Positions 18,236-26,138 of a stretch of DNA of 64,000 nucleotides are shown piece after piece. Every line of letters begins with the position of its first letter. The stretch's first letter is position 1. The position numbers were made by a program, and so were the translations under genes. The stretch is from a phage: assembly GCA_012813795.1 (NCBI GenBank), contig GCA_012813795.1_4087.1; one strand, given 5' to 3'. The notes beneath the pieces were generated by a model. That model saw only the letters and a program-made list of their open reading frames with translations. It was not told the DNA's origin and ran no database searches.

Positions 18236-20155
18236 TTAGTTTTGTTTCACCCCACCCCATTTTTCATAGATGGCAATAATTTTATCTATGTTGTTTGGTG
18301 TAGTTGTTTCAGTATACCCGTCTGGCATTTCTTGTTTAGTTAAAACACCTTTACCAAATCGTTTCTTACATTCTTTTTCAGCCTGTTTACAATCACCATC
18401 AGTATTAAAGAAGAATGTATGTGATGATACAACTTCAAATTTACAGCTTTTATTTTGGCTTTTATGTCGAGTACCTTTATTTTTTTCTATACCATATTTT
18501 ATTGCAATAGGGATGTCACCATCTTTAATTATATTAATATAAGCATATTGTTGGGTATATCCAACTTCATGTGAGTGTCCACTTTTACGGTCAACATGTG
18601 CATACGGTGTTGTAAAAAATTCACCATATTCGGGATGAATTATACACACATTAGTTGCTGTGTTAATATATTCTACTTTAGAATAATCATACAAATCACC
18701 ATGTACTTCTTTGGCTTTTTTAATGAAATCTTCTTTATTTTTAAATCGTAATCTACAGAATGGGTGTTGTCCCCCTTTTAAGTGGTGGTAAGGGGATGTG
18801 TGATATTCTCCATATTCTGGGTGGATAATACATACATGGTCATCAATACCAATATATTCTACTTTCGAATAATCATACAAATCACCATGTACTTCTTTGG
18901 CTTTTTTAATGAAATCTTCAGTGCACATTCGGGCTAAATCACTCCTTGATTTTACCCCACGAATTGGACAACCTTGCCCTGATAAATGAGATGATGGTGT
19001 TTGCCAAAATTCACCATACATAGGATCGATGATACATATTTTAGTATTACTGTTAATATATTCTACTTTCGAATAATCATACAAATCACCATGTACTTCT
19101 TTGGCTTTTTTAATGAAATCCAAAGTCGTTCCAGTCCTTTTGTTTTTTAATAATACTTTCGCACGTTTTGGATTATTGGCACCGTTTAAATGATTATTTG
19201 GTGTTTGCCAAAATTCACCATACATAGGATCGATGATACATATTTTAGTATTATTGTTAATATATTCTACTTTAGAATAATCATACAAATCACCATGTAC
19301 TTCTTTGGCTTTTTTAATGAAATCTTTTAATGTTAATTTTACATTTTTAGTTACAATATGCAAATTACATCCAGTTCTAGATAATAAATGATTAACAGGT
19401 GTAATTTCAAATTCACCATATTCATTATGAATCAATGTTACTTTTGTTCGGTAATCAACATAATTTATTTTTGAATAATCATATGTGTTTTTGAATTTCT
19501 CTTTAGATCTTTGTATAAATTCTTCTCTAGAAAGTTTTTGTTTTTCAGTTGTCTTTATTCTACCAGCTTTTGGATGTCCTTGTCCCTTCACATGACATTC
19601 TGGTGTTTGCTTAAATTCGCCAAATTCTGGATGAATTATTAAGACTTTAGTTTTGTAATCAACATAATTTATTTTTGAATAATCATATATGTTTCCATGT
19701 GTTTTTAATGCACGTTCTAAAAACATTTCCTTTGAAATTTTATTTTTTATATTTTTTTCTTTTAATTTATCCAAACCATGTTTTGGATGACCTACTCCGT
19801 TAAAATGATCTCCAACCAAAATCCAATGTTCACCATATACAGGATGAATGATACAAACTTTATTTTTGGAATTTACATAGTTTACTTTTGAATAATCATA
19901 CAAATCACCATGTACTTCACTAAATTTTTTCAATACACTTTCTTGTGTTAATTTTTTATTCTTCTTTCTGGATGGATTGTTTGAACCGTTCAAATGGTTA
20001 CCTGGAAGCATCCAAAATTCTTCATTACGTTCAATATCAATTATGCATATTTTTTGGGCGTGGTTTGTATATTCAACTTTAGAATAATCATACATGTCTC
20101 CATGTATTTTTTTAAATTCTGTAATAATACTTTCGGTTGACCACTTTTTACGCAT
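18236..20155 (-). CDS. tandem-repeat protein (8 repeats of about 55 aa, core HGDxYDYSKVxY...CIIHPxYGEF) with distinct C-terminal domain
   Basis: 639-aa ORF; repeats nearly identical at DNA level; function unknown. Confidence 0.7.
   Translation of the reverse strand: MRKKWSTESIITEFKKIHGDMYDYSKVEYTNHAQKICIIDIERNEEFWMLPGNHLNGSNNPSRKKNKKLTQESVLKKFSEVHGDLYDYSKVNYVNSKNKVCIIHPVYGEHWILVGDHFNGVGHPKHGLDKLKEKNIKNKISKEMFLERALKTHGNIYDYSKINYVDYKTKVLIIHPEFGEFKQTPECHVKGQGHPKAGRIKTTEKQKLSREEFIQRSKEKFKNTYDYSKINYVDYRTKVTLIHNEYGEFEITPVNHLLSRTGCNLHIVTKNVKLTLKDFIKKAKEVHGDLYDYSKVEYINNNTKICIIDPMYGEFWQTPNNHLNGANNPKRAKVLLKNKRTGTTLDFIKKAKEVHGDLYDYSKVEYINSNTKICIIDPMYGEFWQTPSSHLSGQGCPIRGVKSRSDLARMCTEDFIKKAKEVHGDLYDYSKVEYIGIDDHVCIIHPEYGEYHTSPYHHLKGGQHPFCRLRFKNKEDFIKKAKEVHGDLYDYSKVEYINTATNVCIIHPEYGEFFTTPYAHVDRKSGHSHEVGYTQQYAYINIIKDGDIPIAIKYGIEKNKGTRHKSQNKSCKFEVVSSHTFFFNTDGDCKQAEKECKKRFGKGVLTKQEMPDGYTETTTPNNIDKIIAIYEKWGGVKQN
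18640..20140 (-). repeat. intragenic tandem DNA repeats (about 165-bp units)
   Basis: ttctactttcgaataatcatacaaatcaccatgtacttctttggcttttttaatgaaatc recurs several times. Confidence 0.6.
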
Positions 20156-20410: not shown

Positions 20411-20443
20411 ATTATAGCAAAAAGGGCTGACCGAAGTCAACCC
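20411..20443 (-). promoter_or_regulatory. family-A module (hairpin + TTGACT-N18-TATAAT)
   Basis: revcomp GGGTTGAC-ttcg-GTCAGCCC-tttttgc-TATAAT. Confidence 0.65.
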
Positions 20444-20449
20444 CTTATA

Positions 20450-20677
20450 TCATTTATTGTTGTATTCATACCAACACAGTTTAATATTATATACCAAATC
20501 CTCATAATCACTACATTGCACTATCCATGAATATTTTTCGTCAAATGTATATTTGGGTGAATTAATCATCCATCTTATAGATGCTTTTGTTTTATCAGGA
20601 TTAAATTTATACGTTTCGCGTGACTTGTATGAATCAAGCTTCGCAATCGCATATTTTTTGAATTCTTCATCATTCAT
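20450..20677 (-). CDS. hypothetical protein
   Basis: 75 aa; ATGA overlap with denV stop. Confidence 0.5.
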
Positions 20678-21111
20678 TGTATCATATCAACATAATATAT
20701 AGGTAGCTCAACATCAGTAAACTTATACCACTTAGACTTCATCTGAAGCTTCTCAATCAAACGCTCGCGTGATGTTTTAATCTCGGACTCCGATGGTACG
20801 TAGTCATTACAAAACTCAGCAGGGAAGCCGCTAATGTCGTTTACTTCAGTGTTTTGAATCTTCATACCACGACGCAAACATTCGTTAACAATATCAATAT
20901 GACGCTTCTGTAAGTACAGTAACTTGTCGTAGAAGAATGTTACATGACCTGAACCTAACAGATAAGTACTGTTAATTTTGAAATCACGTACACGCTTACG
21001 TGCTTGAACATGTTTTTGTACAGCACCAAATACACGTGGGAGTTCACGGTATTCAGCCATCAGGTGTTGGTCGGCAAGTTCGTTAACGTGTACTAAGTTA
21101 ATGCGTGTCAT
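20674..21111 (-). CDS. denV: pyrimidine-dimer DNA glycosylase (T4 endonuclease V family)
   Basis: N-terminus [31 protein letters not shown]...[10 protein letters not shown] recalled as near-identical to T4 EndoV incl. Thr2, Arg22, Glu23, Arg26; GAGGA RBS. Confidence 0.85.
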
Positions 21112-21139: not shown

Positions 21140-21172
21140 ATTATAGCAAAAAGGGCTGACCGAAGTCAACCC
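21140..21172 (-). promoter_or_regulatory. family-A module (hairpin + TTGACT-N18-TATAAT)
   Basis: same element as 20411..20443, upstream of denV. Confidence 0.65.
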
Positions 21173-21185
21173 AAATTTAACGAAT

Positions 21186-21752
21186 TTATTTAATGTGATT
21201 TGCAACATCTTTTGCAAGCTGAATTGATACATCATCCCAGGCTTTTTCCAAGATATATGTCAATGAATTTGCACCAATAGTTGGATCTTTTAGATAAGAT
21301 GTGTATGTATTCTCCCATACTTGTTCTTTATATGTAATACGCACTTTTAATGTTGCACCACCAACATCCATACCAGGAGTGATGTTAAAAATTCCAGCAC
21401 TGTATTCGAACTTACTTTTAGCATCAAGTACTTCAATAATAAGTGGTGTTCCATTTATGTTAAGTGTTGCGTATTGTGCAATTGCTTCTTCAACACGACT
21501 ACTGATTGCAACACCTGTTGGAATACGTGTACGCGATCCACCACCAACAAACCCAGAAGCACCTTGAATATCGATGCGACTAACAAATGTATTTGGTTCC
21601 CACACAATATTAACAGTTGGATTACCAACATCAACTGATTTCATTAATGTGACGTTTTTATAATCCAAACGATTATTAAATGGTAAATTTATAGTACATC
21701 CAGACAATATTGTAACAGTAGATAGTACTAAAATAATTAGTAGTTTTTTCAT
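21186..21752 (-). CDS. putative lipoprotein
   Basis: MKKLLIILVLSTVTILSGC signal peptide with lipobox. Confidence 0.65.
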   Translation of the reverse strand: MKKLLIILVLSTVTILSGCTINLPFNNRLDYKNVTLMKSVDVGNPTVNIVWEPNTFVSRIDIQGASGFVGGGSRTRIPTGVAISSRVEEAIAQYATLNINGTPLIIEVLDAKSKFEYSAGIFNITPGMDVGGATLKVRITYKEQVWENTYTSYLKDPTIGANSLTYILEKAWDDVSIQLAKDVANHIK

Positions 21753-21837: not shown

Positions 21838-22209
21838 TCAATCTCCATAATCAAGTTTAACTAACTTACCATTCAAATATCCAAAGTTTTCTGGCTTCGC
21901 ATCTGAATAGAAGAAGTCAGTACTTAACTCTGAATCCAATGCTAAAGCACACAACTCCACCCAAAATAAACCCCTATGTTGTACTGGCTTACAACGTTTC
22001 TGTACTGTTATTAAGCCAGTACGCGATGACCACAGAGTAGGACATATCCCACTGTCACTACGCTTGGAGTACTGCATCCATGAGCGTTCATTGAGGTTAG
22101 CTATCATTCCAGTTAGGAATAACTTCCAGCTTTTGAAGGTTGGAATCTTGATAGCATAATCCCCAATGAGGATAACTGTTCTTGTTGCACCTTTCAAATC
22201 TATATTCAT
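21838..22209 (-). CDS. truncated protein-kinase-like protein
   Basis: YAIKIP (beta3 Lys-like) and DAKPENFGYLNGKLVKLDYGD (catalytic loop + DFG-like) at kinase-like spacing; ORF ends right after DYG. Confidence 0.45.
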   Translation of the reverse strand: MNIDLKGATRTVILIGDYAIKIPTFKSWKLFLTGMIANLNERSWMQYSKRSDSGICPTLWSSRTGLITVQKRCKPVQHRGLFWVELCALALDSELSTDFFYSDAKPENFGYLNGKLVKLDYGD

Positions 22210-22219
22210 ATTTTTTTAA

Positions 22220-22471
22220 TTATAAGAACACAAACCAAGTCCAGAATAAATTCCACACTACAAATAAAGACATAGTGGTTTTATGTACAATATCAGCAGT
22301 ACTGGTCCATCCTCCACCGTGTCCTATTCCATTTATGAATAGAACTAAGAACAAGATACCATTTACTACAATAGTACATACTAAGTACACAAACACATTC
22401 CATGCAAGTTCAGGGGATACTAAAGTAAATGGTAAAACAATTAGTAGTATTAGAACTAATAATATTTTCAT
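22220..22471 (-). CDS. small membrane protein
   Basis: 83 aa hydrophobic; GTGAGG RBS. Confidence 0.55.
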   Translation of the reverse strand: MKILLVLILLIVLPFTLVSPELAWNVFVYLVCTIVVNGILFLVLFINGIGHGGGWTSTADIVHKTTMSLFVVWNLFWTWFVFL

Positions 22472-22510
22472 TTATCGCCTCACTTAATTAACGTGACATA
22501 TCACGTAATA

Positions 22511-22687
22511 TTAGTACGAATCAGATTCCCAGTACTCGATTGCTTCTTTCAGCAATTCGTTAGCACGTTGTTTTGCAACACGAGCGGGTAACTGATATGT
22601 GTACATTAACTGACGCTTTACTTCATTTAATGAACACTGTTCATGATATAGGGCATCCATCAGTCGATTGCGAGTACGTAGTTTCAT
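22511..22687 (-). CDS. hypothetical small protein (58 aa, below track cutoff)
   Basis: ATG with AAGGA RBS; no internal stops; fills gap between neighbours. Confidence 0.45.
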   Translation of the reverse strand: MKLRTRNRLMDALYHEQCSLNEVKRQLMYTYQLPARVAKQRANELLKEAIEYWESDSY

Positions 22688-22698
22688 ATAAGTTATCC

Positions 22699-23253
22699 TT
22701 ATTTCAAAGAATCATAGTAAGCAGTGTCAAAGATTGGAGTCATCATAACATAGTCAATACGGTCAATGTAAGTTGAACTCCACATTTCAGGTTTATCATA
22801 TAAATGACGTTCACGTTCATTTATAATAGTTAATACTTCTTCCAATTTACTACGTGAAGCCATCAAAGTATCACGGGAGCCATAAGTGAAGTACTCAGTC
22901 CATTGATATTCATATGCAGTATAGATGGATTGAATAGTTCCATCTTTGAAATGAGCTAAGGCATAACCTTTCTCTACAAAGTTATCAGGTGGAAGAACTT
23001 CATCTGGATTAGTTGTTAGTGCTTCTGCTAACTTTTCTTTAATTTCAGTTAACGTGCACACTGAACGAATGTTCTTCAGGTTTGATACTTGAAAATCACT
23101 GTACTTCCCAAAGAAAAAGACACGCCAATCTTTAGGTTCATTATCAGATACTGTAGCATTAGGATGATGGGCGAGTAAACGAAGAAGGCCAGCTTTGTGA
23201 CCGTTAATGTAGATTTCATGGATGTGGTTGGCAGTTTTCTTAAAAGTAATCAT
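22699..23253 (-). CDS. hypothetical protein
   Basis: 184 aa; downstream of promoter 23301..23328. Confidence 0.6.
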   Translation of the reverse strand: MITFKKTANHIHEIYINGHKAGLLRLLAHHPNATVSDNEPKDWRVFFFGKYSDFQVSNLKNIRSVCTLTEIKEKLAEALTTNPDEVLPPDNFVEKGYALAHFKDGTIQSIYTAYEYQWTEYFTYGSRDTLMASRSKLEEVLTIINERERHLYDKPEMWSSTYIDRIDYVMMTPIFDTAYYDSLK

Positions 23254-23300: not shown

Positions 23301-23328
23301 ATTATACAGTACTAGTTGAGTTTGTCAA
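23301..23328 (-). promoter_or_regulatory. family-B promoter TTGACA-N16-(CAGTACTG)TATAAT
   Basis: revcomp of tgtcaa 23323-23328 and attata 23301-23306; GC hairpin in 5' leader. Confidence 0.6.
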
Positions 23329-23338
23329 ATACTTTTCA

Positions 23339-23677
23339 TCAACGCTCTGGTAATTTGTCTCGGAGTTTCTCAAGTTTCATAATCAAAGAGAAGAGTCCCC
23401 ACGCGAAAAACCAAACTACAGTCCCAAAAACAACAAAGAATGTTGATAGTGTGCACATCATTCCACCAGTACTTTGGATACCAGTTAGCAGTACTTCACC
23501 CACTGCCATAGTTAAGAATACAAATGCGAAGAAGTGAATTGGTGCATCATCCCAATAGCGTTTGTAGAATGTATTGTATCGGAAGAATAATAAAATATAC
23601 CCAAGCATATAGTACATCCATCCGATACCCGATAAAACAAACGATATCATGTTTAATTCATACATATAATCATTCAT
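23339..23677 (-). CDS. small membrane protein (start uncertain)
   Basis: hydrophobic; several in-frame Met near upstream stop. Confidence 0.5.
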   Translation of the reverse strand: MNDYMYELNMISFVLSGIGWMYYMLGYILLFFRYNTFYKRYWDDAPIHFFAFVFLTMAVGEVLLTGIQSTGGMMCTLSTFFVVFGTVVWFFAWGLFSLIMKLEKLRDKLPER

Positions 23678-23930
23678 TATCAGGTTCATCACAGTTCATA
23701 AGAGCGTTACGGGCAATCCTTGCGGATTGTGCCAGGGACAATACACTCTCCAGTGTAGCAACACTGTAAGAGTTAGATCCAATGGTAATCAGAAGAGATT
23801 GTGAATTATCAACGTCAATATAACCAACTTCAACGCGTTGTGGAGGACCATCGTTCAGTACATAGTTAGTGTCATGTTCAACACGAGCAAGACGGATTTG
23901 TGTAAACATTTTCAATTCAGGGTTTTGCAT
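23670..23930 (-). CDS. hypothetical protein
   Basis: 86 aa. Confidence 0.5.
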   Translation of the reverse strand: MQNPELKMFTQIRLARVEHDTNYVLNDGPPQRVEVGYIDVDNSQSLLITIGSNSYSVATLESVLSLAQSARIARNALMNCDEPDNE

Positions 23931-24247: not shown

Positions 24248-24280
24248 ATTATAGCAAAAAAGGCTGACCGAAGTCAACCT
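24248..24280 (-). promoter_or_regulatory. family-A module (hairpin + TTGACT-N18-TATAAT)
   Basis: revcomp AGGTTGAC-ttcg-GTCAGCCT-tttttgc-TATAAT. Confidence 0.65.
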
Positions 24281-24288
24281 CTTTTTTA

Positions 24289-25873: not shown

Positions 25874-25906
25874 AGAATAGCAAAAAGGGTCAACAAAAGT
25901 CAACCC
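25874..25906 (-). promoter_or_regulatory. family-A module variant (hairpin + TTGACT, weak -10 TATTCT)
   Basis: GGGTTGAC-tttt-GTTGACCC then tttttgctattct. Confidence 0.5.
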
Positions 25907-25910
25907 TTTT

Positions 25911-26138
25911 TTAATATGAAGTATTGTTCAAGAATGTAACTTTTGCACACGATATCTCAAATGACATATAACGTGTCATATCTCGAAATTCATTTTCTAT
26001 GCATTGTAACAGTACTTCAACTTCATTTTCACCAATGTAATACTCATCTCTGACGAATATCTCACTGGTGTATTTCTCACTACTAATACTTTTCTCTCTT
26101 ACGTTAAGTAGGTATTCAATTTTATACCTTTTCATCAC
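25911..26138 (-). CDS. hypothetical protein
   Basis: 75 aa; ATGA overlap. Confidence 0.5.
   Translation of the reverse strand: MMKRYKIEYLLNVREKSISSEKYTSEIFVRDEYYIGENEVEVLLQCIENEFRDMTRYMSFEISCAKVTFLNNTSY

Follow-up and report, generated by a model that had tools for sequence, protein, structure and literature searches.

Introduction

To our knowledge, even those protein-kinase-like (PKL) enzymes that are called minimal, of about 170-220 amino acids (aa), keep a C-lobe centred on helix αF, which is viewed as the framework on which the catalytic and regulatory spines are built. In architecture, OspG/NleH, HopBF1 and Ark1, all minimal kinases, together with RIO/Bud32, come nearest to the protein considered here, a 123-aa product, called below the mini-kinase, encoded in 64,000 nucleotides of phage DNA (GenBank assembly GCA_012813795.1, contig GCA_012813795.1_4087.1; this whole stretch is hereafter the window). 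These enzymes are all 50-150 residues longer and all possess C-lobe helices, whereas the mini-kinase stops right after its DFG-type motif. In the reading that we favour, to which we give a probability of about 0.5, it would be an active, free-standing and minimal ATP-dependent phosphotransferase with a PKL catalytic core, expressed early and directed at the host.

The solved chain of OspG (PDB 4q5h) measures 169 aa and keeps helices past DFG, whereas the phage protein ends one residue past D-Y-G; no sequence relationship between the two was detected, and the targets of OspG are eukaryotic whereas those presumed for the phage protein are bacterial. HopBF1 (PDB 6pwd) and the archaeal Ark1/ArkI (PDB 8yv5, 7vnx) are about 50-90 residues longer, keep C-lobe helices and recognise their substrates (HSP90 and tRNA, respectively) through elements that are missing from the phage protein. 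RIO/Bud32(PRPK) enzymes, of 220-290 aa, have an H-x-D-L-[ST]-x-x-N loop, αF and further helices, and the Pfam RIO1 and Kdo models miss the phage open reading frame (ORF). For NleH/OspG, HopBF1, RIO/Bud32 and Kdo/WaaP, neither profile membership (Pfam RIO1, Kdo, WaaY, APH and others) nor outstanding structural similarity was found.

The comparison with eukaryotic protein kinases (ePKs) and PknB gives the best registers with TTK/Mps1, PKA and KIN28. They share with the phage protein the D-x-K-P-E-N-F ... D-[FY]-G pattern, with the same spacing between the two aspartates (17 residues, as in TTK). Unlike them, the ORF has Y-S-D without the HRD arginine and G-x-T-R in place of G-x-G-x-x-G, and it lacks the activation segment, APE, D220 of αF and helices αG-αI; PF00069 gives no match, and the profile-profile comparison gives P=0.019.

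From a functional point of view, the nearest analogy is with T7 gp0.7 and JSS1_004, early phage kinases that phosphorylate host proteins promiscuously and disarm host defences (PMC13645617, PMC12345140), the effect of T7 gp0.7 on bacterial defences being exerted through pervasive phosphorylation (PMC13645617). The T7 kinase is a two-domain protein of 359 aa, nearly confined to Autographiviridae, whereas the mini-kinase family spans many phage groups. A relationship with T7 gp0.7 (PHROG 2828) was considered and rejected, the hhalign probability being 0.04% and the only PHROG of the ORF being 4301. No description of a phage kinase family of ~120 aa was found by full-text searching of the literature, and there is none such among the 72 PKL families of KINtaro; the mini-kinases would constitute a PKL family defined by its end at DFG.

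The mini-kinase gene

The phage is an Asteriusvirus, i.e. a jumbo coliphage of the 121Q/PBECO4/A4 type (~350 kb), and its best match is phage A4, with 97% identity over the aligned parts. The mini-kinase gene is read on the minus strand (22209→21838), from an ATG start through 123 codons to a TGA stop, and its translation is MNIDLKGATRTVILIGDYAIKIPTFKSWKLFLTGMIANLNERSWMQYSKRSDSGICPTLWSSRTGLITVQKRCKPVQHRGLFWVELCALALDSELSTDFFYSDAKPENFGYLNGKLVKLDYGD. Residues 18-23 are YAIKIP, with K21, and residues 103-123 are DAKPENFGYLNGKLVKLDYGD; K21 and D103 are 82 residues apart, and a single residue, D123, follows D-Y-G before the chain ends. A preliminary description, made from the letters of the window, had reported these two segments about 80 residues apart in a 123-aa ORF and a stop right after DYG, leaving out the activation segment and the C-lobe. 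Both observations hold, with the precision that the gene, for which no strand had been given, lies on the minus strand. Its features are as follows.

21838..22209, minus strand: mini-kinase ORF, predicted kinase subdomains I-VII only, member of PHROG 4301
22180..22191, minus strand: codons G7-A8-T9-R10, the β1-β2 G-x-[TS]-R loop, putative counterpart of the Gly-rich loop (G7 = PKA G52 and V12 = V57 in the permissive hhalign alignment)
22141..22158, minus strand: codons Y18-P23 (YAIKIP), β3 with the invariant K21 (K21 = PKA K72, A19 = A70; strand 18-23 in the model)
22087..22098, minus strand: codons N38-L39-N40-E41, αC with the invariant E41 (= PKA E91) and the near-invariant N38 (helix 28-43 in the model)
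21886..21903, minus strand: codons D103-A-K105-P-E-N108, catalytic-loop motif D-x-K-P-E-N (PKA D166, K168, N171), in register with TTK and PKA
21841..21852, minus strand: codons D120-Y121-G122-D123, DFG-type Mg-binding motif and one further residue, followed by the stop at 21838-21840

Copies of at least 90% protein identity are found in 35 phage records, as a "hypothetical protein" in every record listed. The only family model claiming the ORF is PHROG 4301, of "unknown function" (E 1.7e-43; residues 2-122 align with positions 40-167 of a profile that has 225).

A family that ends at D-Y-G

An exhaustive phmmer scan of 1.84 billion protein cluster representatives gives 846 representatives matching the mini-kinase at E≤1e-3 and 203 at E≤1e-10. 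Among the matches listed, nearly all measure 110-135 aa (median 123 aa) and the alignment reaches their last residues; a word-indexed search returned 15 homologues of 102-127 aa. When the residues following D-Y-G are counted in 260 aligned members, there is at most one in 79% and at most three in 87%, while more than 20 are found in 2% and the maximum is 38. The copies of the window, A4 and 121Q all end in DYGD, the DNA just past the stop is unrelated among the three, and the ratio of nonsynonymous to synonymous substitutions (dN/dS) among these orthologues is 0.08-0.10. The gene is thus under purifying selection, and the stop at D-Y-G is a defining trait of the family and not a local lesion. 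Judged from the sequences, the motif pattern is far beyond chance.

The stop right after DYG had first given the impression of a decaying remnant, i.e. a full-length kinase gene frameshifted or truncated in this genome alone, and this impression is the sole point in favour of such an origin. A frameshift or local truncation is rejected because the homologues keep both length and end point, dN/dS is ~0.09 and the downstream DNA is unrelated in the three phages; in addition, the AlphaFold2 model described below is compact and confident. We therefore regard a remnant as extremely improbable. The frameshift envisaged in the preliminary description is not borne out, and of its term "truncated" the short end is real, whereas the lesion is not, the length being shared family-wide.

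Predicted structure

AlphaFold2, run without templates on an alignment of 141 sequences, gives for the ORF a model with a predicted local distance difference test score (pLDDT) of 95.3 and a predicted template modelling score (pTM) of 0.86. Its elements are β(2-4), β(10-15), β(18-23), α(28-43, 45-48), β(58-61), β(68-71), α(79-92), α(97-101), β(109-112) and β(115-118), in the kinase order β1-β2-β3-αC-β4-β5-αE-catalytic loop-β7-β8, after which the chain ends. The structural hallmarks of a PKL, namely a five-stranded N-lobe sheet with αC, then αE, the catalytic loop and the β7-β8 Mg-binding loop, are all present in the model, whose fold corresponds to about the first two-thirds of a kinase.

When the model is compared with the PDB by Foldseek, a check proposed in the preliminary description, the top 50 matches are all PKL kinases, with probabilities of 0.96-1.00 and query-normalised template modelling (TM) scores of 0.48-0.65; they include WbdD, Lpg2603, TTK, CK2, DYRK2 and PRPK. 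The smallest solved kinases among the structural matches are Ark1 (173 aa), OspG (169 aa) and HopBF1 (176 aa), with values of 7.4, 7.0 and 6.5, respectively, and, among the matches listed, 100-118 of the 123 residues superpose at 2.5-3.6 Å. Phage proteins are the closest neighbours in BFVD, that of Ralstonia phage RP12, called "Protein kinase domain-containing protein" in UniProt, coming first (TM score 0.82). As no single known family stands out in the structure search, the mini-kinases probably constitute a separate PKL family.

Small kinase-like proteins were also seen in BFVD in RaK2-like jumbo phages: H6X4G3 of Klebsiella phage RaK2 (194 aa), and A0A1L2CVI5 and A0A1L2CVG3 of Pectobacterium phage CBB (194 and 168 aa). 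These uncharacterised proteins have 16-19% identity with the ORF and query-normalised TM scores of 0.67-0.72, and no counterpart of them was detected in the window. Jumbo phages may harbour several small kinase-like families.

Sequence-level comparison with kinases

The ORF has no Pfam match at E≤10, RIO1 and Kdo models included, and does not reach the gathering threshold of PF00069 or PF07714; none of 141 members, and none of the long relatives described below, has a significant Pfam match. NCBIfam and PADLOC give no significant match to the ORF, the PADLOC defence-kinase models (e.g. PD-T4-6) among them, and PD-T4-6 matches only the long relative from phage RP12, weakly (E 1.4e-4) and in the region of the catalytic loop and DFG. 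A phmmer search of PDB sequences with the ORF returns nothing. The family profile finds only sub-threshold PDB matches (E 0.17-0.6), 23 of the 26 being protein kinases (TTK/Mps1, MAP3K8), and in the alignments shown the catalytic loop and DFG are in register.

PKA, CDK2, PknB and p38α, whose sequences were each confirmed over the full length against PDB entries, were used to build a four-sequence ePK profile. By hhalign, the family gives E 0.14 with PKA alone, and P 0.019 with a probability of 2.5% over 31 columns with the ePK profile. When the threshold is made permissive, a collinear alignment of 125 columns is obtained, which pairs G7 with G52, V12 with V57, A19/K21 with A70/K72, E41 with E91, D103 with D166, N108 with N171 and D120 with D184.

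Ten key residues of the PKL fold have been defined (Kannan et al. 2007, PMC1821047), and the catalytic six of them, G52, K72, E91, D166, N171 and D184, are all present in the ORF, collinear with PKA. Among the others, P104 may be matched by P57 (135/161), the position of H164 is occupied by Y101, which is not conserved in the family (cf. Y164 in PKA), and no counterpart of H158 was found in the family alignment of 161 sequences. The HRD arginine, the activation segment and APE are absent from the ORF, which has Y-S-D at 101-103 and ends after DYGD. Subdomains VIII-IX and αF with D220, which lie within ~100 aa past DFG, are likewise absent, the ORF stopping one residue past D-Y-G and the 260 aligned members at most 38 residues past it.

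The kinase fold that had been proposed for the ORF is thus upheld by predicted structure and motif register but not by profile statistics. By sequence, the result is close to the absence of any kinase-fold profile match, which the preliminary description had named as contrary to its proposal (Pfam, NCBIfam and PDB non-significant; P=0.019 with the ePK profile), whereas Foldseek of the model does find kinases.

Conservation of the active site

Conservation was counted in alignments of 141 diverse, 161, 260 and 263 family members, depending on the count. In the 141-sequence alignment, strict invariance is confined to K21, E41 and D120, and G7, R10, V12, P23, F31, G34, N38, G65, G110, V117 and Y121 are conserved at 90% or more. 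Among 161 members, G7 is found in 157 (98%), T/S9 in 155, R10 in 159, N38 in 157, K105 in 142, Y121 in 145 and G122 in 141. G7, [DE]103, K105, [NS]108 and G110 are near-invariant. Of 263 members, 258 have the whole K21/E41/D120 triad, and 258 have D or E at position 103, that of the presumed base.

Positions 103 and 108 (window codons 21901-21903 and 21886-21888) are coupled: D…N is found in 99 members and E…S in 146, with mixed states in 9, of 263. The association (Fisher P 4e-59) was computed without regard to phylogeny and mainly separates two clades, mixed states being rare. Such covariation is as expected of two residues serving one site. The window ORF has the D-x-K-x-x-N state, in the eukaryotic-type form D-A-K-P-E-N; D-x-K-P-x-N is the catalytic loop of the Ser/Thr type.

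These data bear on whether the mini-kinase could be a non-catalytic nucleotide-binding module, which would bind ATP or another nucleotide and act by binding a host protein, as a switch, decoy or inhibitor of the pseudokinase kind or as a nucleotide sponge. It lacks αF and the whole substrate-binding lobe, both found in every known active PKL, and it is very small and abundant in accessory regions of phages, like many stoichiometric inhibitors; moreover, some relatives lose K105, and Aeromonas phage PS1 has a degenerate tandem paralogue. In pseudokinases, however, at least one of the catalytic Lys, the HRD-Asp and the DFG-Asp is typically missing, whereas here the triad and the acidic base position are kept almost throughout, and the coupled change at 103 and 108 argues for a selected catalytic geometry and not for binding alone. 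A purely binding role is in our view quite unlikely. An active phosphotransferase is favoured because the intact triad and the coupled base/metal-ligand pair are what catalysis selects and pseudokinases usually lose; of the options first put forward, a minimal kinase would thus fit the conservation of the catalytic residues better than a pseudokinase.

Proposed mechanism and points against it

We infer that the mini-kinase would bind ATP, transfer phosphate to a protein substrate and act early in infection, with the following mechanism. An N-lobe (β1-β5 and αC), one αE-like helix, the catalytic loop and the β7-β8-DFG Mg-binding loop, i.e. Hanks subdomains I-VII, would make up the entire protein. 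The G-x-T-R loop, the K21-E41 pair, N108 and D120 would together enclose Mg-ATP, and D103, aided by K105, would be the catalytic base for transfer of the γ-phosphate. Because the HRD arginine, the activation segment and αF-αI are missing, the cleft would be permanently open and free of control by loop phosphorylation. Substrate recognition, and probably also stabilisation of the exposed αE face, would be supplied by self-association or by the target itself. The substrates would be one or more host proteins, phosphorylated on Ser/Thr in the course of host take-over or counter-defence. Given the σ70-driven, early-type accessory operon and the travel of the gene by itself among unrelated phages (see below), the mini-kinase is most likely a host-directed effector of this kind.

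Several points weigh against this mechanism. As no sequence-profile search is significant (no Pfam match at E≤10, best PDB profile E 0.17, hhalign P=0.019), the kinase assignment rests on predicted structure and motif register and not on statistical sequence homology. In addition, E-x-K-x-x-S, for which we know of no precedent among active ePKs, replaces D-x-K-x-x-N in 146 of the 263 members collected, and the relatives of the OBP and Kc263 types lack K105. Finally, every characterised PKL enzyme that we know of has αF and further C-lobe helices, and a core without αF may be unstable or inactive on its own.

A stronger form of the proposal is put forward only tentatively, as somewhat unlikely: the mini-kinase could be an autonomous, active protein kinase of ~115-125 residues, in which phosphotransfer would need just subdomains I-VII, and which would serve many unrelated phages as a promiscuous early effector reprogramming the host or disarming its defences.

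Distribution and search for a partner

The family is found in T4-like, N4-like, rV5-like, FelixO1-like, jumbo, sipho and lambdoid phages. One member is carried by phage Bas45/PaulHMueller of the BASEL collection, for which E. coli K-12 was the isolation host. Salmonella lambdoid prophages have the gene by itself between Rz and Nu1, the classic moron slot. Further carriers are an Aquimarina (Bacteroidota) prophage and a Methylococcus chromosome; a second ORF of 134 aa near the Methylococcus homologue was considered as a relative and rejected, being unrelated.

The neighbourhoods were compared by all-against-all BLASTP of the ORFs within ~±2.5 kb in 13 unrelated phage lineages: Asteriusvirus, T4-like JS10, T4-like Bas45, N4-like phi G17, rV5-like A5-4, FelixO1-like SWJM-02, Aeromonas phages PS1 and 2L372X, Erwinia phage Y3, Ralstonia phage RP12, Pseudomonas phage OBP, Kosakonia phage Kc263 and Pseudomonas siphovirus PaMx25. 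The mini-kinase alone is common to all 13. The family is strongly constrained and widely mobile as a single gene.

This comparison bears on the idea of a split kinase, in which the C-lobe would be provided in trans by a separate phage protein, or a second copy or paralogue would form an obligate heterodimer. Something must presumably cover the exposed αE face; OspG, another minimal kinase, needs bound E2~Ub for its activity (cf. the title of PDB 4q5h), and phage PS1 has two tandem paralogues. A linked split kinase is rejected because no neighbour is conserved in the 13 lineages and the family hidden Markov model (HMM) finds no second copy among the ORFs of the window; the adjacent C-lobe gene that had been suspected at first is therefore not there. 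In the window itself, the next ORF downstream, a lipoprotein-like module that is variable and absent in A4, was rejected as a source of the C-lobe. The solitary position between Rz and Nu1 in prophages and the tails of the long relatives, which have no kinase C-lobe signal, also argue against a split enzyme, which we regard as very unlikely. A distant, unlinked or host-encoded partner, or self-association, may play such a part.

These long relatives are RP12 gp235 (209 aa), OBP gp197 (273 aa) and "PknA" of Kc263 (267 aa), in which the extra residues follow D-Y-G. They are true homologues over the I-VII core (34-36% identity in the multiple alignment, 30-35% by tblastn), and differ from the mini-kinase by tails of 66-134 aa past D-Y-G. 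No Pfam match and no APE or αF-like motif was found in these tails; against the PDB, the kinase matches of the RP12 protein reach at most ~20 residues past D-Y-G, and the Kc263 protein has none. Some long relatives are already labelled "serine/threonine kinase" by genome submitters or UniProt, so that the kinase resemblance has been noticed by automatic annotation of a few of them, not studied. The N-terminal extensions of long members are putative transmembrane segments or of unknown nature, possibly owing to mis-called starts, and they have no Pfam matches and hence give no hint of domain fusion.

In Aeromonas phage PS1, the tandem paralogues lie at 2142-2501 and 2501-2866 of the compared record (L006). 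The degenerate copy precedes the canonical mini-kinase, shares 36% identity with it over 81 aa and has no recognisable G-x-T-R or A-x-K-x-P motif; the PS1 record holds three family matches in all. The two genes may constitute a kinase/pseudokinase pair.

denV, encoding a T4 endonuclease V-type pyrimidine-dimer glycosylase, is found directly downstream of the mini-kinase both in Asteriusvirus A4 and in PaMx25, an unrelated siphovirus of Pseudomonas (coordinates 20674-21111, minus strand, in the window; 1575-2012 in record L001; 2827-3312 in record L005), and in T4-like JS10 the downstream gene is the RNA ligase gene rnlB. This could reflect a link with nucleic-acid repair or a coincidence within early gene clusters.

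Such neighbours, together with APH, Ark1 and SAICAR synthetase being among the top structural matches, are in favour of the same fold and ATP site acting on a non-protein substrate or serving another ATP-dependent chemistry. The candidates would be (i) a small-molecule, nucleotide or nucleic-acid kinase, for instance one phosphorylating 5'- or 2'-OH ends of RNA or DNA in connection with repair, or (ii) an ATPase, or an enzyme of the AMPylase/ligase type such as SelO, SidJ and the ATP-grasp enzymes. However, a non-protein substrate fits poorly with the best sequence registers, which are with the ePKs TTK, PKA and KIN28, and D-x-K-P-E-N, with Lys at +2, is typical of Ser/Thr protein kinases and not of APH, ChoK or RIO-type loops. 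Moreover, the adjacency concerns only 2 of the 13 lineages for denV (Asteriusvirus and PaMx25) and 1 of 13 for rnlB, and such genes crowd early regions anyway. We thus hold a non-protein substrate or another chemistry to be unlikely, and retain a host-directed protein phosphotransferase as the favoured reading.

Predicted local operon and neighbouring elements

In the window, five co-oriented ORFs, of which the mini-kinase gene is the fourth, lie between a predicted σ70 promoter (23328-23301) and a hairpin followed by a T-run (21172-21153). Elements of this predicted operon are listed below.

23301..23328, minus strand: predicted consensus σ70-type promoter, TTGACA-16-TATAAT (12/12 in a consensus scan), the nearest strong promoter upstream of the operon
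22220..23253, minus strand: three upstream ORFs of the same predicted operon, of 184 aa, 58 aa and 83 aa (the last a predicted membrane protein), no Pfam matches
21186..21752, minus strand: lipoprotein-like ORF of 188 aa (MKKLLIILVLSTVTILSGC; signal peptide, lipobox LSGC), between the mini-kinase and denV, no Pfam or family-HMM match
21140..21172, minus strand: hairpin and T-run terminator embedding a TTGACT -35, then an extended -10 (TG-n-TATAAT), found by scan; one of the five copies of repeat family D5

This layout predicts early transcription by the host RNA polymerase, and the hairpin cassette is predicted to close the operon and to restart transcription for denV. The three upstream ORFs are conserved within Asteriusvirus only and are not tied to the family elsewhere. 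The lipoprotein-like ORF is absent in A4, and an unrelated gene of 89 aa takes its place in 121Q; this ORF does not represent a kinase C-lobe but a variable module, and may be a superinfection-exclusion or envelope-modifying moron. The 83-aa product (22220-22471) and one of 117 aa (23339-23692) are strongly hydrophobic predicted membrane proteins, encoded on the minus strand in the same early-type block and found in Asteriusvirus only.

The intergenic cassette GGGTTGACTTCGGTCAGCCC-TTTTT-GCTATAAT (minus-strand reading) is present in five copies, at 18200-18237, 20414-20451, 21143-21180, 24251-24288 and 25877-25914. It combines a GC hairpin and a T-run (intrinsic terminator) with a TTGACT -35 within the stem and an extended -10 located 18 nucleotides later, and its copies (18-26 kb) bracket gene modules that differ among the window, A4 and 121Q. 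It is reminiscent of the promoter-early stem-loops (PeSL), a proposed vehicle of module shuffling in T4-type phages. In the same region, a 639-aa ORF (18236-20155, minus strand) contains 8 tandem repeats of ~200 nucleotides (protein motif HGDLYDYSKVEY ... EF ... P..H..G) and a distinct C-terminal domain; it has no significant Pfam match, BDV_P40 and DUF3903 alone being found below their curated cut-offs.

Implications for the family

Although they stop at DFG, the hundreds of divergent members retain, under strong selection, all the residues for ATP binding and catalysis. Whether they are active is directly testable, since the carriers include the BASEL phage Bas45/PaulHMueller. If inactive, they would still represent a new class of kinase-derived nucleotide-binding module. 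If active, the mini-kinase would be the smallest kinase-like catalytic unit known and would redefine the minimal kinase; it would offer a very small, regulator-free engineering scaffold, as well as a natural experiment on the purpose of the C-lobe, and phages would possess, beside T7 gp0.7, a second and much more widespread kinase family.

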